Notes under the pieces: generated by a model | The model's input: the letters and a program-made list of their open reading frames with translations, nothing else | Told to the model about the DNA's origin: nothing | Database searches by the model: none | Program-made: the position numbers and the translations under genes | Shown: in pieces, positions 8,225-26,447 of the stretch | Layout: each line of letters starts with the position of its first letter | Position numbering within the stretch: position 1 is the stretch's first letter | From: an uncultured bacterium | GTDB lineage: Bacteria; Patescibacteriota; Minisyncoccia; UBA6257; 2-01-FULL-56-20 | NCBI GenBank assembly: GCA_963718575.1 | Contig: OY970358.1 | Location: 194,172 to 258,171 of the forward strand | DNA: 64,000 bases | Reading direction: 5' to 3'

Positions 8225-8830
8225 TTAATATTGCGTGTGCGTGTTTTGGATCGCGGCCATGACGGTGGGCGAAAGCGAGCTCACGACCGGCGAATTGGTT
8301 TTGACGAGGCCGTAGAGGATGACGGCGACGAGGAACGCGACCGCGAGAAGGAACACGATGAATCGCGCAAACCAGTGGCGGCCGAGCACGATGCTCGCGC
8401 CCCACAAGATGAGCAAGATCGGCCAGAACGGCGCGATCGCCAGCCAGAAACCGTGCGAGACGAAGCCCATCGTATAGAGCAATCCAACGACGCCCACAAA
8501 AAGCACGATCATCCCAAAGAACAGGCCGCCCTCGTGATGATGATCGCGGCGCCAGTCTTCGCGCTGCATCCGGCGCTCGGCGCGCTGTTGATCCCGTTGC
8601 TCGTGATGATGCTGCTTCCACCCATCCTTGCGCGCACGCCAGTCTTCTTTGGTCTCTGATTTGGCATCGGACGCGGTCTTCCTCCAATCCGCGCCGCCAT
8701 GCTCCCCTGACGTATTTACGTCCATGCCAAAAACCTGCACATGTGGGCGCGGGCCACCCTGCCCGACTTCTTGCTTGGCCTCGACTTCACTGGCGTTATT
8801 TTCCTGCTCCTGCTTGTTTTCTTCATCCAT
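8225..8830 (-). CDS. Polytopic membrane protein with acidic/His-rich cytoplasmic N-terminus (hypothetical; PspC/LiaF-TM-like)
   Basis: 201 aa. Charged N-terminal half (HHHEQRDQQRAERRMQREDWRRDHHHEGG) then 4 predicted TM helices. Co-oriented with the LiaF-like gene. Confidence 0.35.
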   Translation of the reverse strand: MDEENKQEQENNASEVEAKQEVGQGGPRPHVQVFGMDVNTSGEHGGADWRKTASDAKSETKEDWRARKDGWKQHHHEQRDQQRAERRMQREDWRRDHHHEGGLFFGMIVLFVGVVGLLYTMGFVSHGFWLAIAPFWPILLILWGASIVLGRHWFARFIVFLLAVAFLVAVILYGLVKTNSPVVSSLSPTVMAAIQNTHTQY

Positions 8831-8851
8831 AAAACCATTATAGCACGAACT

Positions 8852-9232
8852 CTAGACGCGCTCCTCTAGAGTATTCACGCGTTCGTTCATCCCCTCAATT
8901 AATATTTTAAGCGAGCCGTATCCTTCCAACGTAAAATCAAATTTTGAATCTAATTTTTCGAGCAAGAGGCCGGTCTTTTTATTTGATTCTTCGAAACGAT
9001 CTATCCTCTTTTCAAAAAGATTCATCCGTTCATCTAACCTCTCTGCCACTGAATCCATTTTGCCGGCAATAAGAAGCATTCTTCCATCCACTCCGTTCTT
9101 TAAATGGTCAAACTTATCATCAAACGCAATAACAAGCCCGTCCATCTTCTTATCGATGGCCCCCACCTTGCCCTCAAGGGTTTCAACCCTCTTATCCAGA
9201 TTTTTTAAAAGAATATTTTCCTTTTCAAGCAT
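8852..9232 (-). CDS. Small coiled-coil protein, paralog family member 1
   Basis: 126-aa heptad-rich ORF. Promoter/upstream motif is shared with 19197..19481 and 55026..55388. Confidence 0.5.
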   Translation of the reverse strand: MLEKENILLKNLDKRVETLEGKVGAIDKKMDGLVIAFDDKFDHLKNGVDGRMLLIAGKMDSVAERLDERMNLFEKRIDRFEESNKKTGLLLEKLDSKFDFTLEGYGSLKILIEGMNERVNTLEERV

Positions 9233-11421: not shown

Positions 11422-12623
11422 TTACTTGATGATCTTCGTCACGACGCCGGCGCCGACCGTCTTGCCGCCCTCGCGGATGGCGAAACGCATCTTGTCTTCC
11501 ATAGCAACCGGGGTGATGAGCTTGACCGTGATCTTGACGGTGTCGCCCGGCATGACCATTTCCATTCCTTCAGGAAGGGTGACCTCACCGGTCACGTCGG
11601 TCGTGCGGATGTAGAACTGCGGCTTATACCCCTTGAAGAACGGAGAGTGACGGCCGCCCTCTTCCTTCGAGAGCACGTAGATCTCACCTTCGAACTCCGC
11701 GTGCGGGGTGACGGTGCCCGGCTTCGCGAGCACCTGTCCGCGCTCCACGTCCTCTTTCTTGAGACCGCGGAGGAGCAAACCGGCGTTGTCGCCTGCCTGA
11801 CCATCATCCAAGCTCTTGTTGAACATTTCGATGCCGGTGACGACGGTCTTCTGGGTCGGCTTCAAACCGACGACCTCGACTTCCTCGTTCACTTTGACGC
11901 GACCGCGCTCGATGCGGCCGGTGACGACCGTGCCGCGGCCTTCGATCGAGAAGATGTCCTCGATAGGCATAAGGAACGGCTTGTCGAGTTCGCGGACCGG
12001 ATCCGGGAAGTAATCGTCCATCGCCTTGATCAAGATCAAGGATCGGCTTCGCATCTGCGGAATCAGCATCGGTCGCGTTCAACGCCTTCAATGCCGAACC
12101 GCGGATCACCGGGGCATGCTCGCCATCGTAGCCGTTCTTGGTGAGCAACTCGCGCACCTCGGACTCTACGAGATCGATCAATTCCGGATCATCTACCATA
12201 TCGCACTTATTAAGGAACACGATGATGTTCGGCACACCGACCTGGTGAGCGAGCAAGATGTGTTCGCGGGTCTGCGGCATCGGGCCGTCAGTCGCGGCAA
12301 CGACGAGCACTGCGCCGTCCATCTGGGCGGCGCCCGTGATCATGTTCTTAATGTAGTCAGCGTGTCCCGGAGCATCAACGTGCGCATAGTGGCGCTTCTC
12401 CGAAGAATATTCGGAGTGATGCAAAGCGATCGTGATGCCACGAGCCTTCTCTTCCGGAGCATTGTCGATCTGATCGACTTTCTCCTCTTTCTTTGCCCAA
12501 CCCTTCAAAAACAAAACGTGCGTGATCGCCGCGGTCGAGCGTCGTCTTGCCATGATCGACGTGGCCAATCGTACCTACGTTGAGGTGCGGCTTGGACCGG
12601 TCGAACTTTTCTTTTTCTGCCAT
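11422..12623 (-). CDS. tuf: Elongation factor Tu, interrupted by two apparent 1-nt indels (~12536 and ~12032)
   Basis: Three overlapping frames together read [29 protein letters not shown] | [36 protein letters not shown]...ADAKPILDL | [25 protein letters not shown]...[14 protein letters not shown]. This gives a full-length EF-Tu. Confidence 0.9.
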
Positions 12624-19614: not shown

Positions 19615-19685
19615 GGGCCTTTAGCTTAGTGGTAGAGCAATCGGTTTGCATCCGATAGATAGGGGTTCGATTCCCCTAAGGTCCA
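19615..19685 (+). tRNA. tRNA-Cys (GCA)
   Basis: Manual cloverleaf: 7-bp acceptor stem (one G-U), anticodon loop tttGCAt, T-arm agggg-ttcgatt-cccct. No encoded CCA. Confidence 0.8.
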
Positions 19686-19706
19686 CATTGCGGCAATCCG
19701 ACTGCG

Positions 19707-20870
19707 GTGGCCGCGGAAAAATCTATCCCTAAAAAGGAGAAGGATACTACTGCGCTCCAACGGATACTTGGGCTTTGGATTATCGGCATTGCGGTTTTAA
19801 TATTTGGGTTGGAATTTTTATTTCCTTCACAATTTCTTGCCCTGAGTGCATTCATCAGTCAGATACCAAAGTTTTTTACGAGTTTTTCGCAGACAACGAT
19901 AACAGATCAAGGCGATGGAGCCCACGTCGTCAATATGCCCATACAAATGGGTCAGCCCGCGACGACGCAACCGCAGCCAGCTGCCAATCCGCTCGCCGTT
20001 CAGACAAGCAGCGCCGGAACATTTTATCCGCTCCAGCAAGTTAATCTTTGGGGCTATTCATTTTACACGAGCAAGATCGACGGGAGCGGAAGCATCGACA
20101 TAGGATCGAGCGCGAAGCAGACCATCGCTACTCTCCTATACGACATTGGCTATCCACATTCTCTGACAACCAACCTCGCCATCATCGACGCCGACCCGAC
20201 GCTCATGCAGCCGGGCGAATATATTGAAACCCCTTTTGCGAGCAATATCCCCGTTGCGATATCCAGCTTTCCTGAAAGCGGGTTATACGAACAAGTTGGT
20301 ATCGGATCATCCTATACGGGAGCGATCATTTACATGGATAGCACCAACAATTGGGATTTGGCCGTCCTGACCCACGAGCTGGGTCATAACATTGGTTTCC
20401 GCCTGACCGACGCGCAATGGACGGAGTATTACGAACTGCGCGGCATACCAGCGAACACGCCACGAGAGACGAGCAACTGGTATACGTCTCCCGAAGAAGA
20501 TTTTGCGGAAGTATTCAAAGCGACCTACGCGCAAGGCAGTGGCGGCGAGTGGAATATCAGAACATATTATGGCCCACTGATTTCGACAAATGATATTTAC
20601 GACGTTGAAAGTCCCTGTTACCCGTTGGAACAAACCGCCTTTCAAAATTTACTCGATACATGGAAGGAAAATAACAGCAGCACGTTTATGGTTCCGGCGA
20701 ATGTTATGACTGAATTTCAAGATCAAGCCCAATATGATCCGAAGGTGCAGGCGTGCCGACAAACCGATACTACGCAGTCGCCGTTCGGGGGCTCTATCTA
20801 CGAGAGAATTACTACCCCAGCGACGCAGGCGTTTATAAAAAGCGTCGTAGCGGGATTTGCTAAGAGTTAG
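19707..20870 (+). CDS. Membrane-anchored putative zinc metalloprotease (HExxH), hypothetical
   Basis: N-terminal TM helix ILGLWIIGIAVLIFGLEFLF. HELGHNIG zincin motif. GTG start right after tRNA-Cys. Confidence 0.4.
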   Translation: MAAEKSIPKKEKDTTALQRILGLWIIGIAVLIFGLEFLFPSQFLALSAFISQIPKFFTSFSQTTITDQGDGAHVVNMPIQMGQPATTQPQPAANPLAVQTSSAGTFYPLQQVNLWGYSFYTSKIDGSGSIDIGSSAKQTIATLLYDIGYPHSLTTNLAIIDADPTLMQPGEYIETPFASNIPVAISSFPESGLYEQVGIGSSYTGAIIYMDSTNNWDLAVLTHELGHNIGFRLTDAQWTEYYELRGIPANTPRETSNWYTSPEEDFAEVFKATYAQGSGGEWNIRTYYGPLISTNDIYDVESPCYPLEQTAFQNLLDTWKENNSSTFMVPANVMTEFQDQAQYDPKVQACRQTDTTQSPFGGSIYERITTPATQAFIKSVVAGFAKS

Positions 20871-21466
20871 ACATTCGCATATAGCGACCTCATCTTAGCA
20901 AGCGTGTCCTTATAGAAAGTATCAAAACTCCTGCTGCTAGATCGAAGCTTACCCATGTCGATCAATCGAACGATTTCTAAATGTACATCGTCATCGGTCT
21001 TGGTAATGTCGTCGTTGGATTTGCTGATCATGTAATGATACCTGTCTTTTGGTGAAATAATATCGCCGAATGGCAGTGGTTCGGTTCCTGCGAAGCCAAG
21101 GATATTTTTAATCGCATTCTCCTCGTCCAAAAACCACTCTTCTATCACTGGGTCCGGACATCCGACAACACCGAAGGAATGATCAATCCCCAAGAGACAC
21201 GCCTCCCTGACTAGCCGACGGACGTTTGAACATTTATGAGAATCGCCGTCCGTGTCGGTAACAAAAATCCCGAATGAGCATTCAGGCTTTATCTCTAAAA
21301 ATAAACCAAGCGCCGCTTCGATCGATGATTTCGTTATCGATCCATCCGCCGTCTTCACTCTAAACTTTATTTCCTCCGTTATTCCGGCATCAATGGCGAT
21401 GCGTTTTATCAATTCCTTCAGGGTCTTATCGTCAAATGTTCCTTCGCAATGAATGCCTACTAACAT
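20867..21466 (-). CDS. TOPRIM-like nuclease-domain protein (DUF4276/RloB-like), partner of the upstream ATPase
   Basis: 199 aa. N-terminal ...VGIHCEGTFD (conserved Glu) and FVTDTDGDSH (DxD) are arranged like TOPRIM. AT-rich relative to the genome. Confidence 0.5.
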   Translation of the reverse strand: MLVGIHCEGTFDDKTLKELIKRIAIDAGITEEIKFRVKTADGSITKSSIEAALGLFLEIKPECSFGIFVTDTDGDSHKCSNVRRLVREACLLGIDHSFGVVGCPDPVIEEWFLDEENAIKNILGFAGTEPLPFGDIISPKDRYHYMISKSNDDITKTDDDVHLEIVRLIDMGKLRSSSRSFDTFYKDTLAKMRSLYANV

Positions 21467-21475
21467 GGAAAGCGG

Positions 21476-22585
21476 TTACAGATTATTGATGTAGTCTGTC
21501 ATCTTCCCGCCTCTCTCCAACATTTTTTGTATGCTGGTAGCCTGTGCACTTTCACTCAAGAGAGTAAGCTCCGTCCCTTTATCATTTTTTTCGGCTAGCA
21601 CTACTTCGTGAACTGGAAGGCGATTGATTACCAAAGGGCTGTGGGTAGTAAAAAGAATTTGCATATTTTTTATTGTTGCAATTTTTCTTAGATGGTCGAT
21701 CAACTCGTTGATCCGATGGGGGTGGATGCCGTTTTCTATCTCCTCAATTATAAGCGACGAATGCTCGTTGAGCTTGATCGCTTCGCCGATAAGGTAGAGT
21801 GTTCGAAGATCACCAGCCGAGAGCAACTTCATTGAAAGCATTCTTTTTAGGTTATGCTCTTGCATCAAAACCAAATACTGCTGTTCAGCCGGATTACCGG
21901 ATGCCTTGAGCTCCACTTCCTTGAAAGCTGAAATTGAAGGGATCATCTTTTTGCTGATGTCGATAAAATTCTTGTATAACTCTGGCTTGTGATTTAGCCA
22001 GACCAAAAGACTTGCCAATGACTCCTCGCTGCTACCCACACTCCCAATGGAGTCGCTGACCTCAAAATATTCTTTGGTTATATAAACATCAGAAAATATT
22101 TTTCTTATCCCGGCGGCGTCTTCCTGATTGAAGAGTGCCGTAGCCAAACGCTCGTTATCGATTGCAAGAGGCACCGGATTTCCGGCGGCATCGGTTAAGC
22201 TATTCTGTTTCCGCGTATAAACAGGAGCTTGCACTCCATCGATTATTTTTTCCAACTTCTCTGATCGGATGACAGTTGACTGATTTCCGGAGAGCAGCTC
22301 GACAGAAAAATCCAATATGTACTTTCCACCATTAGAAAGATTTATCTTTATAGAAAACTCAGACGAAACATCGCTTGCATTAAAAAGTTCGTTCTGCGTA
22401 AGGCTCATCTTTGCCGCCGCCTTGGGAAGACTGTCGCCAGCCACTAAGCTTTTCACGAGCAGCAATGCTTGGATGAGGTTGGTTTTACCAACAGCGTTCT
22501 TTCCCACTACGGCACCAAAAGAAGGCAAACTAGCGCTGCTTTTCTGAAAGCTTTTGAAATTAACGATCTCTATGGAGTTAATCAT
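21476..22585 (-). CDS. ABC-type ATPase of the AAA_15/AAA_21 (RloA/AbiLi/AriA/OLD N-terminus-like) class
   Basis: Walker A GKNAVGKT. Walker B/D-loop LIIEEIENGIHP. H-loop FTTHSPLV. 369 aa, AT-rich. 9 nt upstream of the TOPRIM-like gene. Confidence 0.7.
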   Translation of the reverse strand: MINSIEIVNFKSFQKSSASLPSFGAVVGKNAVGKTNLIQALLLVKSLVAGDSLPKAAAKMSLTQNELFNASDVSSEFSIKINLSNGGKYILDFSVELLSGNQSTVIRSEKLEKIIDGVQAPVYTRKQNSLTDAAGNPVPLAIDNERLATALFNQEDAAGIRKIFSDVYITKEYFEVSDSIGSVGSSEESLASLLVWLNHKPELYKNFIDISKKMIPSISAFKEVELKASGNPAEQQYLVLMQEHNLKRMLSMKLLSAGDLRTLYLIGEAIKLNEHSSLIIEEIENGIHPHRINELIDHLRKIATIKNMQILFTTHSPLVINRLPVHEVVLAEKNDKGTELTLLSESAQATSIQKMLERGGKMTDYINNL

Positions 22586-22811
22586 TTAAGCCATTTATAT
22601 ATTATCACACTTTGGAGATGATGTTCTTATGAATACAATATCTTGCTCCATTTTTATCTCCGTTGCAATGGCACCGCCATGATACCACTCGGCCATTAAA
22701 AAACAATTAATTAGACCAGCGCCGACGAGATCCATAATCCTTGCCAAGATCCCAGCGCGATGATAATGTTGTGCCAGCAGGTATTCACATTCCAACGAGG
22801 AGAGAAAGAGC

Positions 22812-23786
22812 ATGGAAAATACACACAGCACCCAACGGTTTGCCGTGGGAACGATCCCAGATATTCCATTGGGGCTCATCCGGCCCTTTCGGAATCAACC
22901 TCGCAAACACTTCGACCAAAAAGGATTGGAAGAGCTCGCCGCGAGCATCAAGGAAGAGGGACAGATAACGCCAGCATGGGTGATGCCCATCTTCGACGAT
23001 CCGGTGATCGAGTACGAGCTTATCGCAGGAGAACGCCGGTGGCGTGCCTGTGGGATAGCGGGAATAGCAACGCTGCGAGGAGAAATCCGCGCACCAGAGA
23101 CCGCAGCGAAGCAGTATCTCGACTCCGTAATGGAAAACTTCGGAAGAAGGGATTGCACGCATCTCGAAACCGCGCGGGCGATCGAAGAAATGCGGCGTAT
23201 CCATTTTGGAGAAAAACCAGAGTGGGGCGAAAAAGTTACGGAAAAACTCGCCAAGATCTTCGTCCATTCCACCGCGTGGATCAACCAGTACCGGAGCCTT
23301 CTCCGACTTCATCCCGAAGTACAGGCCATGATGGAGCCGGGGGTTGAGGAAAAACAGCGGCTTCCGTTTCAGGTCGCGATCGCGTTGGCAAACTTGGAGC
23401 AGGAATCGCAGCTTACCATCGCACGGCATATCGTCGGGGAGGGTTTGAGACTCAAACCAGCGCTTGCCCATATCCGTGCGGAAGTTAGCGATGATATACG
23501 TATCAAGAAGAATGGTCGGCGTGGACGTCCACACAGGGACTACGACGTTCTGCGAACCTTCCTGAAAAGTCTGGGGGAAGGAGCGGAAGGATTGCTTAAT
23601 ATGTCCCACAAGACATTTGAGGAGATGTTCCGCCACCGGCCAGTACGAGAACTTCAGAACGTCATTGAGGTCTTGAAAAAAAGGCAGGGTCAGCTCAAAG
23701 ATCTTGAGCAGGCACTGCGCCGTGTATCGGTTCCTAATGAAGGTCAACGGCCCGTCTTGATAAGCAGAGCCGCTGGCGAACGTTAA
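22812..23786 (+). CDS. ParB/Sulfiredoxin N-terminal domain protein
   Basis: ...IPLGLIRPFRNQPRKHFDQKGLEELAASIKEEGQITPAWVMP...YELIAGERRWRAC matches the ParB-like nuclease/NTPase domain. 324 aa, helical C-terminal half. Confidence 0.6.
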   Translation: MENTHSTQRFAVGTIPDIPLGLIRPFRNQPRKHFDQKGLEELAASIKEEGQITPAWVMPIFDDPVIEYELIAGERRWRACGIAGIATLRGEIRAPETAAKQYLDSVMENFGRRDCTHLETARAIEEMRRIHFGEKPEWGEKVTEKLAKIFVHSTAWINQYRSLLRLHPEVQAMMEPGVEEKQRLPFQVAIALANLEQESQLTIARHIVGEGLRLKPALAHIRAEVSDDIRIKKNGRRGRPHRDYDVLRTFLKSLGEGAEGLLNMSHKTFEEMFRHRPVRELQNVIEVLKKRQGQLKDLEQALRRVSVPNEGQRPVLISRAAGER

Positions 23787-23815
23787 TGCCATTCAACTTC
23801 GGAAAGGAGAAGTAT

Positions 23816-24460
23816 ATGTCGATAGCACCTCGGCCGCAGCAGGTCAATCAGGATGCGCTCATCGAACGCGCGCAACAGGGAGATTCTGCTGCGTTCAAGG
23901 AGCTCTATGAACTTCATAAGAGACAGGTGTACCGCATCTGCTACAGAATGGTTAAAAACCAAGCTGATGCAGAAGATTTGGTGCAAGAAGCCTTTCTCCA
24001 ACTTTTCCGCAAGTTGAAACTGTTTCGCGGTGAATCCCAGTTCAGCACTTGGTTTCACCGCCTCGTGGTAAATGTTGCGCTGATGAAACTCCGCAGGAAA
24101 GACGGTCGATACGACGTCTCCCTCGACGAACTTGTGGAGGTTGGCGACGGCGAGCTCCAGCGGGAGGTTGAGTCCATCGACCATCATCTGAGGTTGTCGC
24201 CCGAACGTATCGCAGTGGGAAAAGCCATCGAACAGCTGCCTCCGGGCTACCGCTTGATCCTTCGGATGCACGATCTCGAAGGGTTTGAGCATAACGAGAT
24301 TGCGGAGATCCTTGGATGCAGCATCGGCAACTCAAAGTCCCAACTCCATAAGGCGAGGGCAGCACTCCTTTCTCTCCTTGAGGTCAAACTTGATCCACTT
24401 TCAATCCTTGTTAATTTCGATAAATTTTTGTCGGACAACGGGAATGAGAGCATACAATAA
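23816..24460 (+). CDS. ECF-type RNA polymerase sigma factor (sigma-70 regions 2 and 4)
   Basis: ...FKELYELHKRQVYRICYRMVKNQADAEDLVQEAFLQLF... (region 2) and ...YRLILRMHDLEGFEHNEIAEILGCSIGNSKSQLHKARAAL (region 4). GGAAAGGAGA RBS. 30 nt after the ParB-like stop. Confidence 0.8.
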   Translation: MSIAPRPQQVNQDALIERAQQGDSAAFKELYELHKRQVYRICYRMVKNQADAEDLVQEAFLQLFRKLKLFRGESQFSTWFHRLVVNVALMKLRRKDGRYDVSLDELVEVGDGELQREVESIDHHLRLSPERIAVGKAIEQLPPGYRLILRMHDLEGFEHNEIAEILGCSIGNSKSQLHKARAALLSLLEVKLDPLSILVNFDKFLSDNGNESIQ

Positions 24461-24488
24461 AAAGCCATCTGTAGTTAGGTGAAATTCT

Positions 24489-24536
24489 AAAAGCTCGGCA
24501 CCAAAAATTGCCGAGCTTTTTCTTTTAAATTAGTCC
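24489..24536 (+). terminator. Intrinsic terminator (agctcggcaccaaaaattgccgagct + T-run)
   Basis: Follows the sigma factor gene. Confidence 0.65.
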
Positions 24537-25077: not shown

Positions 25078-25761
25078 CTAAAAGAATCTTCCCGTGAAGA
25101 GGGCGAAGAAAAAGTTGATGACCGGGAAGATGATGCCGAATCCGAAGAAGACGAAGATAAGCACGAGGATCAATCCCCAGCGCTCCATGAAGTACATGAA
25201 TTTGTATGTGGCGGGCGTGGGCGGTAAAACCAAAAACAAAAGTTTTGAACCGTCGAGCGGCGGGATCGGCACGAGGTTGAAGATGCCGAGGAGCACATTG
25301 ATATAGACGATGATCAAAAAGAAGAAATAGATCCCGTCGAGCGGGCCCACGAAGACCGGCGTGCCGGCGTTCGCGATCGCGCCGAAGAGCGCGCCCTTCG
25401 TTGCGCCCGCGATCGGCACGAGCACGCTCAGGATCCCGAACACGAGCGCGATGAATAAATTTGTGGCGGGACCCGCGAGCGCGACCTTCACCGCGCCCGT
25501 GCGCGGATTCTTCAGGTTGTTCGGATTGTACGGGACCGGCTTTGCGCCCGCAAAGAAAAATCCCGTCGTTAAAAACAGGACGAGCGGCATGAGGAATGAG
25601 AGAAACGGGTCAAGGTGCGCGAGCGGATTCAACGTCAGCCGCCCGGCGCGCCGCGCGGTGTCGTCCCCAAGCCGCTCCGCCTCGTAACCGTGCGCCACTT
25701 CATGGAGCACCGCCGAGAAGAGCAGAACGACGAATTCGAATATGATGATTGCAATAGTCAT
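25078..25761 (-). CDS. Site-2 protease family (M50) intramembrane metalloprotease
   Basis: HEVAHG zinc motif in TM1 plus NLVPIPPLDGS. 227 aa, polytopic. Confidence 0.8.
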   Translation of the reverse strand: MTIAIIIFEFVVLLFSAVLHEVAHGYEAERLGDDTARRAGRLTLNPLAHLDPFLSFLMPLVLFLTTGFFFAGAKPVPYNPNNLKNPRTGAVKVALAGPATNLFIALVFGILSVLVPIAGATKGALFGAIANAGTPVFVGPLDGIYFFFLIIVYINVLLGIFNLVPIPPLDGSKLLFLVLPPTPATYKFMYFMERWGLILVLIFVFFGFGIIFPVINFFFALFTGRFF

Positions 25762-25838: not shown

Positions 25839-25910
25839 GCCCTCGTAGTGAAACGGATATCACGCATGGCTTCGAACCATGAAGTCTGGGTTCAACTCCT
25901 GGCGGGGGCA
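25839..25910 (+). tRNA. tRNA-Arg (TCG), tentative
   Basis: Manual fold: acceptor gccctcg/cgggggc, D-arm gtga-aacggata-tcac, anticodon loop ctTCGaa, T-arm with two G-U pairs. Weaker than the other tRNAs. Confidence 0.5.
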
Positions 25911-25961
25911 CCGATAGAAAACAGTAGGGCTACATTTTAATTCAGTAAGTAAACTTCTCTA

Positions 25962-26129: not shown

Positions 26130-26202
26130 GCCCCTATAGCTCAGTTGGTAGAGCAACTCCCTCTTAAGGAGATGGTCCGAGGTTCGAATCCTCGTGGGGG
26201 CA
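26130..26202 (+). tRNA. tRNA-Lys (CTT)
   Basis: gcccctatagctcagttggtagagc...anticodon loop ctCTTaa...cgagg-ttcgaat-cctcg-tgggggc-a. Canonical cloverleaf. Confidence 0.85.
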
Positions 26203-26447
26203 CCGCGTGCGAACATTGCGTATAGTGAGATTCTGTGGTATTTTAATTTCTGCAATTCCTATATCATCCAGGGAGGAAAAATGGACAACGCTACGGCGAT
26301 GATCGCGTCGCCCCGACAGAAACTTTGCGCCAGAGCATTTATCATGACGCAGACAAGACTCCGAAACCATATCCAACCGGACTTCAACGTGTTCTTACGC
26401 GGAGATCAAAGAATCACTTTGCCAAGAGCAAGAAAAGGGAGGCGTAC

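Follow-up and report, generated by a model that had tools for sequence, protein, structure and literature searches.

A ParB-like protein clade genetically linked to an ECF sigma factor in Patescibacteria and tailed phages

A stretch of 64,000 nucleotides of an uncultured bacterium of the Patescibacteriota (contig OY970358.1; "the window" in the following) contains two adjacent genes, which encode a ParB-like protein of 324 amino acids and a sigma factor of the extracytoplasmic function (ECF) type with 214 amino acids. The contig has 881,652 bp, and the ribosomal protein S12 groups with that of Minisyncoccia/Paceibacterota, within the Patescibacteria. The comparison with homologous loci revealed that the clade of the ParB-like protein is tied to sigma factor genes, and not the reverse, and that the pairing is far beyond chance. 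It probably represents an undescribed mode of sigma factor control and not chromosome partition. By analogy with KorB, BisD and VirB, we give an even chance to the view that the ParB-like protein binds DNA at specific sites, is gated by a nucleotide, and serves as a regulator dedicated to the co-transcribed sigma factor. Binding of cytidine triphosphate (CTP), clamp behaviour, a DNA target, the sign of the regulation and a physical contact to the sigma factor are what we infer for this protein.

Linkage of the ParB-like clade to sigma factor genes

A search of 5.8 billion proteins yielded a family of 33 proteins, with E-values from 1e-192 to 1e-36 and a coverage of about 90%. Beyond these members there was a gap in the scores, and ordinary ParB proteins followed at E ~1e-23 with a coverage of 50–65%. 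The clade is rare and occurs in Patescibacteria and in tailed phages. The cultured phages in GenBank contained no close relative, only generic ParB proteins with less than 38% identity. A scan of metagenome contigs, in which almost only canonical ParB proteins were among the matches listed, added one family locus (L170). Eighteen distinct family loci were informative, and 12 of them had a gene of the sigma-70 family within 1 kb, whereas none of the ordinary ParB loci, 230 in number, had one (Fisher p=2.2e-16). The co-occurrence of the two genes in other genomes, proposed as a check in the original prediction that had been made from the window sequence alone, was thus indeed found.

The ParB-like gene is directly followed by the sigma factor gene on chromosomes, in contexts whose flanks are unrelated to one another (L001/2, L003/4, L005/6/10 from a Saccharibacteria metagenome-assembled genome (MAG), and L253), as well as in phage or mobile contexts (L009, L090/L256, L250 and L251). 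At L001, L009, L090, L250, L251 and L253, the stop codon of the first gene overlaps or abuts the start codon of the second. Other arrangements were found with members of about 30% identity, at L013, where the sigma factor gene comes first and the overlap is 13 nt, and at L012 and L170, where the sigma factor gene is divergent; the three sigma factors were confirmed with Pfam. Altogether, the pairing is conserved over 30–90% protein identity and in three orientations. It persists on chromosomes and in phages and through reorderings, and the window sigma factor lacks the zinc-binding anti-sigma (ZAS) protein of its Acidobacterial relatives. These findings support the proposal of a functional tie between the two proteins, with the ParB-like one being an unconventional sigma regulator or a regulatory module of a mobile element. 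The phage nature of loci is indicated by several features: L090 is an IMG/VR contig, L009 has phrog_1735 at E 7.6e-245, L251 encodes a large terminase 3.4 kb downstream of the pair, and L252 has terminase and portal genes, with the ParB-like gene about 4.8 kb upstream of terL. Viral loci with related sigma factors had a ParB-like neighbour in only one of 46 cases, which was the one already known.

Two loci with other neighbours were also seen. The neighbours in L091 are LexA-like. At L007 (8001–10602), a clade member of 462 amino acids, with 36% identity and a long extension at the C-terminus, has no ECF sigma factor gene behind it; the gene that follows encodes a sigma54-activator AAA+ protein. 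This context is chromosomal and rich in ribosomal proteins.

At the DNA level, the window resembles L003 only at positions 22736–24465 (86% identity); the similarity ends 76 nt before the start codon of the ParB-like gene, and the flanks are unrelated. The ParB-like proteins of the two loci are 90% identical and the sigma factors 88%, and omega values of 0.07 and 0.135, respectively, indicate purifying selection. No neighbour in the window recurs at another family locus. The two genes of the cassette form a module that is conserved and horizontally mobile.

A natural loss of the ParB-like gene was found in L255, a Patescibacteria-like contig of 318 kb. At 8650–9010, the promoter and about the first 79 ParB-like codons are left, now with an in-frame TAA. 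The locus matches the window at 22736–23047 and at 23766–24467; the deletion corresponds to 23048–23765 (about 718 bp), and the remnant is joined to the ribosome-binding site (RBS) of the sigma factor gene. The sigma factor is intact, with 83% identity and omega values of 0.12–0.19. In this one lineage, the ParB-like gene thus seems to be dispensable for the retention of the sigma factor.

The ParB-like gene is also disrupted in the Saccharibacteria MAG locus L005 (8690–9030), where it is split and the C-terminal domain lies in another frame. This is either a frameshift or an assembly error, and because of the split the database protein P0021 (247 amino acids) is truncated.

Structure of the operon and of its two products

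The cassette and its products comprise the following features, for which RBS denotes a ribosome-binding site and HTH a helix-turn-helix:

22736–24465, forward strand: whole cassette of 1.73 kb (promoter, ParB-like gene, ECF sigma factor gene), from blastn and alignments
22741–22746, forward strand: −35 hexamer TTGCCA of a sigma70-type promoter, read from the sequence
22761–22769, forward strand: extended −10 element TGATAATGT (TGn plus TAATGT) after a 17-nt spacer, from the sequence and orthologue comparison
22770–22811, forward strand: 5′ leader with the RBS GAGGAG (22797–22802), predicted candidate operator
22812–23786, forward strand: coding sequence of the ParB-like protein, 324 amino acids, TAA stop
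22857–23138, forward strand: ParB N-terminal CTPase domain, residues 16–109, from Pfam and column conservation
23160–23486, forward strand: ParB-type HTH DNA-binding domain, residues ~117–225, from TIGR00180, HTH_ParB, PDB profile and Foldseek
23496–23783, forward strand: clade-specific three-helix C-terminal domain, residues 229–324, from the AlphaFold2 model (helices 240–262, 266–272 and 278–306)
23804–23809, forward strand: RBS AAGGAG of the sigma factor gene, from the sequence
23816–24460, forward strand: coding sequence of the ECF (group 4) sigma factor, 214 amino acids, ATG at 23816
23903–24103, forward strand: sigma2, residues 30–96
24212–24367, forward strand: sigma4, residues 133–184
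24489–24530, forward strand: strong intrinsic terminator (hairpin 24489–24520) with a 12-bp perfect stem, an 8-nt loop and a T-run

The promoter and the terminator are common to both genes, which therefore form a single operon. The 324-codon open reading frame (ORF) with its GERRWRA motif and ParB_N domain was verified, and so was the downstream ECF sigma factor gene with an RBS of its own. The ORF of the sigma factor is open from 23786, and the first ATG preceded by an RBS is that at 23816, 29 nt behind the ParB-like stop codon. A translational linkage, which had also been proposed, is not evident in the window with its gap and separate RBS, while stop/start overlaps are indeed frequent at homologous loci. 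The placement of the pair within a low-GC island had to be abandoned, because the guanine plus cytosine (GC) content of the cassette (0.524) is about that of the window (0.529), and the low-GC stretch is 19707–22585 (0.461).

The promoter TTG(C/T)CA-N17-TA(A/C)TGT with its TGn is kept 5′ of the orthologues in L003, L001, L253 and L255, and in this set of loci its architecture is retained although orthologous proteins are only 51–57% identical. The stretch 22760–22811, which comprises the −10 element and all that lies between it and the start codon, differs from L003 at a single position, although the whole cassette has diverged by 14%, and the leader has diverged more in L255, which lacks the ParB-like gene, than in L003. 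This region is thus a candidate operator, on the basis of three sequences. The fold of the leader RNA is insignificant (z = −0.27), and the leader motif does not recur within the window.

On the basis of profile and structure comparisons, residues 1–225 of the ParB-like protein are a complete module of the ParB/Noc/KorB type, consisting of a CTPase domain and an HTH. Pfam detected ParB_N (PF02195) at residues 16–109 with E 4.5e-17; HTH_ParB was matched weakly in the window protein and was detected in 31 of the 33 family members. The NCBIfam model TIGR00180 (ParB/RepB/Spo0J) matched residues 18–199 with 82.6 bits (cutoff 58.45). The family profile matched Spo0J, Noc and ParB chains in the PDB over residues 8–233 (E 1e-34 to 1e-29), and, distantly, KorB over the N-terminal domain (E 7e-13). 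The best PDB matches of the AlphaFold2 model (mean predicted local distance difference test score 88), determined with Foldseek, were ParB, Noc and KorB bound to CTP or cytidine diphosphate. PHROG matches were annotated as "ParB-like partition protein", and a structure search in BFVD retrieved generic phage ParB only. The original prediction had regarded the helical C-terminal part as unrelated to ParB. This holds true for residues ~229–324, but not for residues ~117–225, which are a canonical ParB HTH according to TIGR00180 and the PDB profile; the non-standard part is the dimerisation domain, and no parA was seen.

For the ParB of Caulobacter crescentus it has been reported that CTP binding and hydrolysis need the residues Q58, R60, S74, G79, E102, R103, R104, E135, N136 and R139 (PMC8367383). 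Their counterparts in the window protein are Q29, R31, S45, G50, E74, R75, R76, E108, N109 and R112, which are kept in 26–33 of the 33 members. They lie in Q29-P30-R31, S45, G50, G73-E74-R75-R76, E108-N109 and R112, and Q29/P30/R31, G73–R76 and N109 show no or almost no variation across the family. Box III reads ENFGR, compared with ENLQR in canonical ParB. Hence, the residue pattern suggests that the ParB-like protein binds a nucleotide, probably CTP. The protein has exactly two cysteines: C80 (codon 23049–23051), directly after GERRWRA, is conserved in 31 of 33 members, and C115 (codon 23154–23156), in the motif NFGRxDC, in 24 of 33 (His in 6). Two aligned solved ParB-family proteins have S/V and L at these positions. 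By their location beside the nucleotide pocket, the two cysteines could form a redox or metal switch.

Residues 229–324 had no Pfam match, neither in the window protein nor in the 33 members. Searched alone, they gave 18 matches among 1.84 billion representatives. The full-length proteins of 10 of these were scanned; all 10 have ParB_N and/or HTH_ParB upstream, and thus none of them is a stand-alone C-terminal domain. The simplest presumed role is that of a replacement dimerisation domain, with or without partner binding.

Typical features of partition systems were lacking. The ParB C-terminal dimerisation domain (PF23552), which was found in most canonical ParB matches, was present in 0 of the 33 members. 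The ParA-activating peptide ([LIF]G[KR]G[LIF] / LG[KR]GL) was likewise found in 0 of 33 members versus 58 of 87 canonical matches. A Soj/ParA-like gene was present at 0 of 20 family loci versus 71 of 76 control ParB loci, which had been retrieved in the same way. The family loci included the whole window, which also contains no ORF with KGGxGK[ST]; the absence of parA noted in the original prediction thus extends to the full 64 kb. Because there is no parA at the loci and neither the ParA-activating peptide nor the ParB C-terminal domain in the members, the clade does not appear to be a partition system.

By its domains, the sigma factor is a standard two-domain ECF sigma factor of group 4 (Sigma70_r2 with 4e-20, r4_2 with 6e-17, TIGR02937 with 117 bits at a cutoff of 42.9). 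None of the named ECF equivalogs of NCBIfam was reached: the best, PRK11922, scored 140 bits versus 204, and SigM and SigW were also below cutoff. The window sigma factor is 57–62% identical to a very large ECF family of the Acidobacteriota, to which it is nearer than to most of the other ParB-linked sigma factors (41–56%). In total, the ParB-linked sigma factors are 38–59% identical to this family and 22–30% identical to second ECF sigma factors encoded at the same loci, and therefore the partner belongs in every case to one ECF group. The closeness of the window sigma factor to the Acidobacterial group suggests that this group has evolved slowly or that a transfer between phyla took place.

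In an Acidobacteriota locus (L254:5001–6337) the sigma factor gene is followed after 5 nt by a gene for a 234-amino-acid protein with HARECHNC (HxxxCxxC) and a transmembrane (TM) segment, and then by DUF4097, which is the classical ZAS anti-sigma layout. Neither an anti-sigma domain among the products of the neighbouring genes (Pfam) nor an ORF with HxxxCxxC was found in the window, in agreement with the earlier remark that no obvious anti-sigma factor is present. Thus, the sigma factor does belong to a large conventional ECF group, but the cognate anti-sigma factor of the group is missing here. The C-terminal domain of the ParB-like protein was considered as a substitute and was rejected as an anti-sigma domain (ASD)/ZAS anti-sigma factor, because the 33 members had no match to a Pfam anti-sigma family and the protein has no HxxxCxxC, and as an L254-type anti-sigma factor, because BLASTP gave no alignment to the protein of L254.

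Possible mode of action and competing explanations

In the proposed mechanism, a self-contained module of 1.73 kb would be transcribed from a housekeeping-type promoter to the terminator. The ParB-like protein would combine a nucleotide switch, probably for CTP, with an HTH and would carry the clade-specific C-terminal domain in place of the usual one. With the zinc-binding TM anti-sigma factor of the group missing, it would serve as a controller dedicated to the sigma factor and would gate the expression of the common operon and/or of sigma-dependent promoters. Its effect would more likely be modulatory or negative than an obligatory co-activation. In one phage contig, the terminase gene follows a few kb downstream of the module, which suggests that the module arose as a timing device of phages or mobile elements and was later retained by cells. 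A more far-reaching version is tentative and, in our view, doubtful: a ParB-type clamp would have replaced the anti-sigma factor and would exert a DNA-borne, CTP-gated sigma control in Patescibacteria and their phages, which might also be redox-gated via the two cysteines and may time late transcription.

Several observations weigh against the proposed dedicated control of the sigma factor. No binding site emerged: canonical parS had no match in the window at up to three mismatches, no palindrome is common to nine module loci, and no repeated palindromes occur across the window, so that the search for parS-like palindromes nearby, which the original prediction had suggested, gave none; a non-canonical site may lie elsewhere in the 0.88-Mb genome. 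A 16-mer with the perfect 12-bp palindrome GTGGACGTCCAC (23521–23532) was rejected as a site, because it was not detected as a palindrome in L003. Nor could a sigma-dependent promoter or a regulon be defined, the generic ECF promoter GGAAC-N15-18-CGT having six matches versus 8.3 expected. The operon promoter resembles the housekeeping sigma70 type and not the ECF type, and thus gives no indication of an ECF autoregulation. Six informative members have no adjacent sigma factor gene (L008 and L252 from phages, L007, L091, L092 and L093), and therefore the ParB-like protein seems able to function without it. The deletion in L255 could be recent, and it would hence be weak evidence on dependence. 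Lastly, a published ParB–sigma fusion bound adenosine triphosphate (ATP), in contrast to the CTP proposed here (see below).

Regulators of the ParB family have been described in other contexts. KorB of plasmid RK2, which acts together with KorA, is a CTP-dependent sliding clamp of the ParB family that regulates transcription (PMC11790492). It shares with the window protein the ParB_N CTPase fold plus HTH and was found by profile as well as by Foldseek; its role in transcription with a small partner, and on a mobile element, would be a further parallel. Differences are that the KorB-specific Pfam domains are lacking here, that the partner is an ECF sigma factor and not a repressor, and that no operator was identified here. 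KorB also partners with the ParA-type protein IncC; the window encodes no ParA. BisD of ICEclc, which acts with BisC, belongs to the ParB-like CTP clamps, has an activator domain in addition, and is needed for activation (PMC12409273). Common to both systems are the ParB-like clamp fold, a lineage-specific extra domain and a co-encoded transcription factor; cooperation with this factor and the regulation of mobile-element genes would be further parallels. In contrast, BisD is a required activator, whereas the deletion in L255 leaves the sigma factor intact; furthermore, the C-terminal domains are unrelated as far as detectable, and the partner here is a sigma factor. VirB is a third ParB-like CTP switch that regulates transcription (PMC10770331). 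The similarity to Spo0J, ParB and Noc comprises homology of CTPase domain and HTH over about 225 residues (E 1e-34) and the presence of QPR, GERR and EN..R, whereas the ParA peptide, parA and PF23552 are lacking, neither parS nor a Noc-binding site was found, and a sigma factor gene is the neighbour instead.

From the side of the sigma factors, fusions of the ParB-CTPase fold to Sigma70 domains have been reported, and the fusion bound ATP and not CTP (bioRxiv 10.1101/2025.10.10.680097). They also link a ParB nucleotide-switch fold to a protein of the sigma-70 family, and thus give support of the Rosetta-stone type. Compared by description, they differ from the two genes of the window, which lie 29 nt apart and of which the ParB-like one has kept its own HTH. 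The supplement of that survey of ParB folds has no Sigma70 entry. The ECF/ZAS pairs exemplified by L254 have sigma factors of the group to which the window sigma factor is 57–62% identical, and they also are two-gene operons with a dedicated partner, but the partner here is a cytoplasmic DNA-binding protein of the ParB family, which is encoded upstream and has neither an ASD/ZAS motif nor a TM segment. A conceptual parallel is late transcription of phage T4, which involves the sliding clamp gp45, gp33 and the sigma-like gp55 (PMC2988020): there, a phage sigma factor is coupled to a clamp that tracks along DNA, and clade members are found upstream of packaging genes in phages. The protein families are unrelated, however, the sigma factor here is a complete ECF protein, and a clamp dependence is contradicted by L255. 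In full-text literature searches no description of an operonic ParB-like/ECF pair was found. The main text of the ECF re-classification does not mention ParB, does not include a clamp among its mechanisms of sigma control, and states that phage ECF sigma factors are not captured (PMC7826278); ParB and clamp-type control are also absent from a review of non-canonical ECF mechanisms (PMC8999054). What appears to be new is the combination of a ParB-like transcription regulator with non-canonical ECF control, for which the synteny is solid and the mechanism is a proposal.

An alternative explanation is that the ParB-like protein is an anti-sigma factor at the protein level, its C-terminal domain sequestering the sigma factor, possibly on DNA, and nucleotide binding or hydrolysis, or a redox change at the two conserved cysteines, causing the release. 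It would then stand in for the ZAS anti-sigma factor itself. This ranks first among the alternatives and is nevertheless unlikely. It would account for the absence of the ZAS anti-sigma factor typical of the relatives of the sigma factor, for the stop/start overlaps at many loci, which suggest stoichiometric co-expression, and for L013, where the sigma factor gene precedes the ParB-like gene with 13 nt of overlap in the classic sigma/anti-sigma layout. The loss in L255 with retention of the sigma factor resembles the loss of a negative regulator, and the only two cysteines, C80 (31/33) and C115 (24/33), are family-specific and lie beside the nucleotide motifs. Yet the C-terminal domain is unlike any Pfam anti-sigma family or the Acidobacterial anti-sigma factor, and it lacks HxxxCxxC; in the scanned full-length matches it always stands behind ParB_N and/or HTH_ParB, to which a replacement dimerisation fits equally well. 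The divergent genes in L012 and L170 and the members without sigma factor need no stoichiometric coupling. The opposite role, that of an obligatory DNA-borne co-activator, would require that the clamp is loaded, slides, and delivers or activates the RNA polymerase with the sigma factor at distant promoters, and that it times late transcription in phages. BisD (PMC12409273) and T4 late transcription (PMC2988020) are precedents, the pair lies 3.4 kb (L251) and the ParB-like gene ~4.8 kb (L252) upstream of the terminase gene, and at L007 the gene behind that of the clade member encodes a sigma54-activator AAA+ protein, which is another initiation factor. Against it stands L255, where the ParB-like gene is lost and the intact sigma factor argues against such an obligatory role; moreover, a sigma factor with full sigma2 and sigma4 and with 57–62% identity to free-standing ECF proteins should be intrinsically active, and most related phage sigma factors have no ParB-like neighbour. 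This role is improbable.

The ParB-like protein could also be an ordinary ParB that serves the maintenance of a phage-plasmid or mobile element and is merely encoded beside an early-gene sigma factor; the two proteins would then have no functional relationship, and the chromosomal copies would be decaying remnants. It scores above the cutoff of TIGR00180, a "partition protein" model, PHROG calls it a "ParB-like partition protein", some of the phage members have no sigma factor, and in L255 the gene has decayed and in L005 it carries a frameshift. Nevertheless, parA is present at 0 of 20 family loci versus 71 of 76 control loci, and neither a ParA-activating peptide nor a ParB C-terminal domain nor parS was found. 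The bare cassette persists in at least four chromosomal contexts under strong purifying selection, and the linkage survives inversion and reordering. We thus place this explanation between the anti-sigma and the co-activator role, and it is also improbable. By far the least credible is that the two genes are a part of the adjacent defence-like system, which consists of an AAA_15/AAA_21 ATPase and a partner of 199 amino acids, or encode an anti-defence factor. The ATPase gene lies immediately upstream in divergent orientation, and its product matches PDC-M07A, HEC-01A, AbiLi and AriA; proteins with a ParB fold are known from defence as well as anti-defence contexts. However, neither the ATPase nor other window neighbours occur at any other family locus, PADLOC gave no match for the ParB-like protein or the sigma factor, and the DNA homology to L003 stops 76 nt 5′ of the ParB-like start codon.

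If the proposed dedicated sigma control is true, the pair would show how an alternative sigma factor can be put under the control of a DNA clamp, in a small testable system of two genes and one promoter. CTP switches of the ParB fold have only recently been seen as transcription regulators (KorB, BisD, VirB), and the pair would join this field with that of ECF sigma factors, in which sigma factors without an anti-sigma factor are a recurring open problem. Few dedicated regulatory modules can be recognised in the Patescibacteria, which are poor in genes, and the pair would be one of them; as it is shared with phages, it may offer a handle on the programming of transcription by phages of uncultured Patescibacteria. 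The reported fusions of ParB and Sigma70 suggest that the relationship is broader than this clade (bioRxiv 10.1101/2025.10.10.680097).

Genes in the vicinity of the cassette

The cassette is part of an interval of about 6.1 kb, which is flanked by the gene for tRNA-Ala (19615–19686) on the left and by those for tRNA-Arg and tRNA-Lys (25839–25912 and 26130–26204) on the right. The interval comprises a peptidase-like gene, the genes for the 199-amino-acid protein and the AAA ATPase, the ParB-like/sigma cassette, a gene for a 136-amino-acid protein and an M50 peptidase gene. Direct repeats of the flanking tRNA genes resembling att sites were not found, and no integrase was seen. Positions 20867–22585 (reverse strand), which have the low GC content (0.46), encode the ATPase (369 amino acids), which in PADLOC matches PDC-M07A with E 7e-34, and then the 199-amino-acid protein, which has only a faint match to HEC-01B. 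Together they are a candidate two-gene defence system, which seems to be unrelated to the cassette. The location of the pair beside a defence-like module had thus been recognised correctly, while a functional link is not apparent.

The 387-amino-acid protein encoded directly after tRNA-Ala (19707–20870, forward strand) has an N-terminal hydrophobic segment, the motif HELGH and a faint similarity to Peptidase_M57/M43. The M50 peptidase of the site-2-protease family (227 amino acids; 25078–25761, reverse strand) is encoded about 600 bp past the sigma factor gene. A participation in an anti-sigma proteolysis pathway was considered and rejected, because there is no membrane anti-sigma factor here and the gene is absent beside other cassettes. 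The 136-amino-acid protein was also rejected as a part of the module, because it is not conserved at other family loci.

Genes with a weak flavour of oxidative stress and detoxification were found near chromosomal cassettes, including those for DsbD, thioredoxin/AhpC, MsrA, MsrB, Fe/Mn superoxide dismutase, an isochorismatase, an aldo-keto reductase and a glyoxalase (L255:10810–13841; L005:9801–10418; L001:10983–11558; L253:5375–6948 and 11899–12291). These neighbours may be a hint at the regulon of the sigma factor. In two phage or mobile loci, genes of the phosphoadenosine phosphosulfate (PAPS) reductase family are located 1–3 kb from the ParB-like gene (L008:4961–5878, reverse strand; L250:6146–7015, forward strand). 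This is reminiscent of IbrA and IbrB, which reportedly are a pairing of a PAPS reductase and a ParB-like protein.

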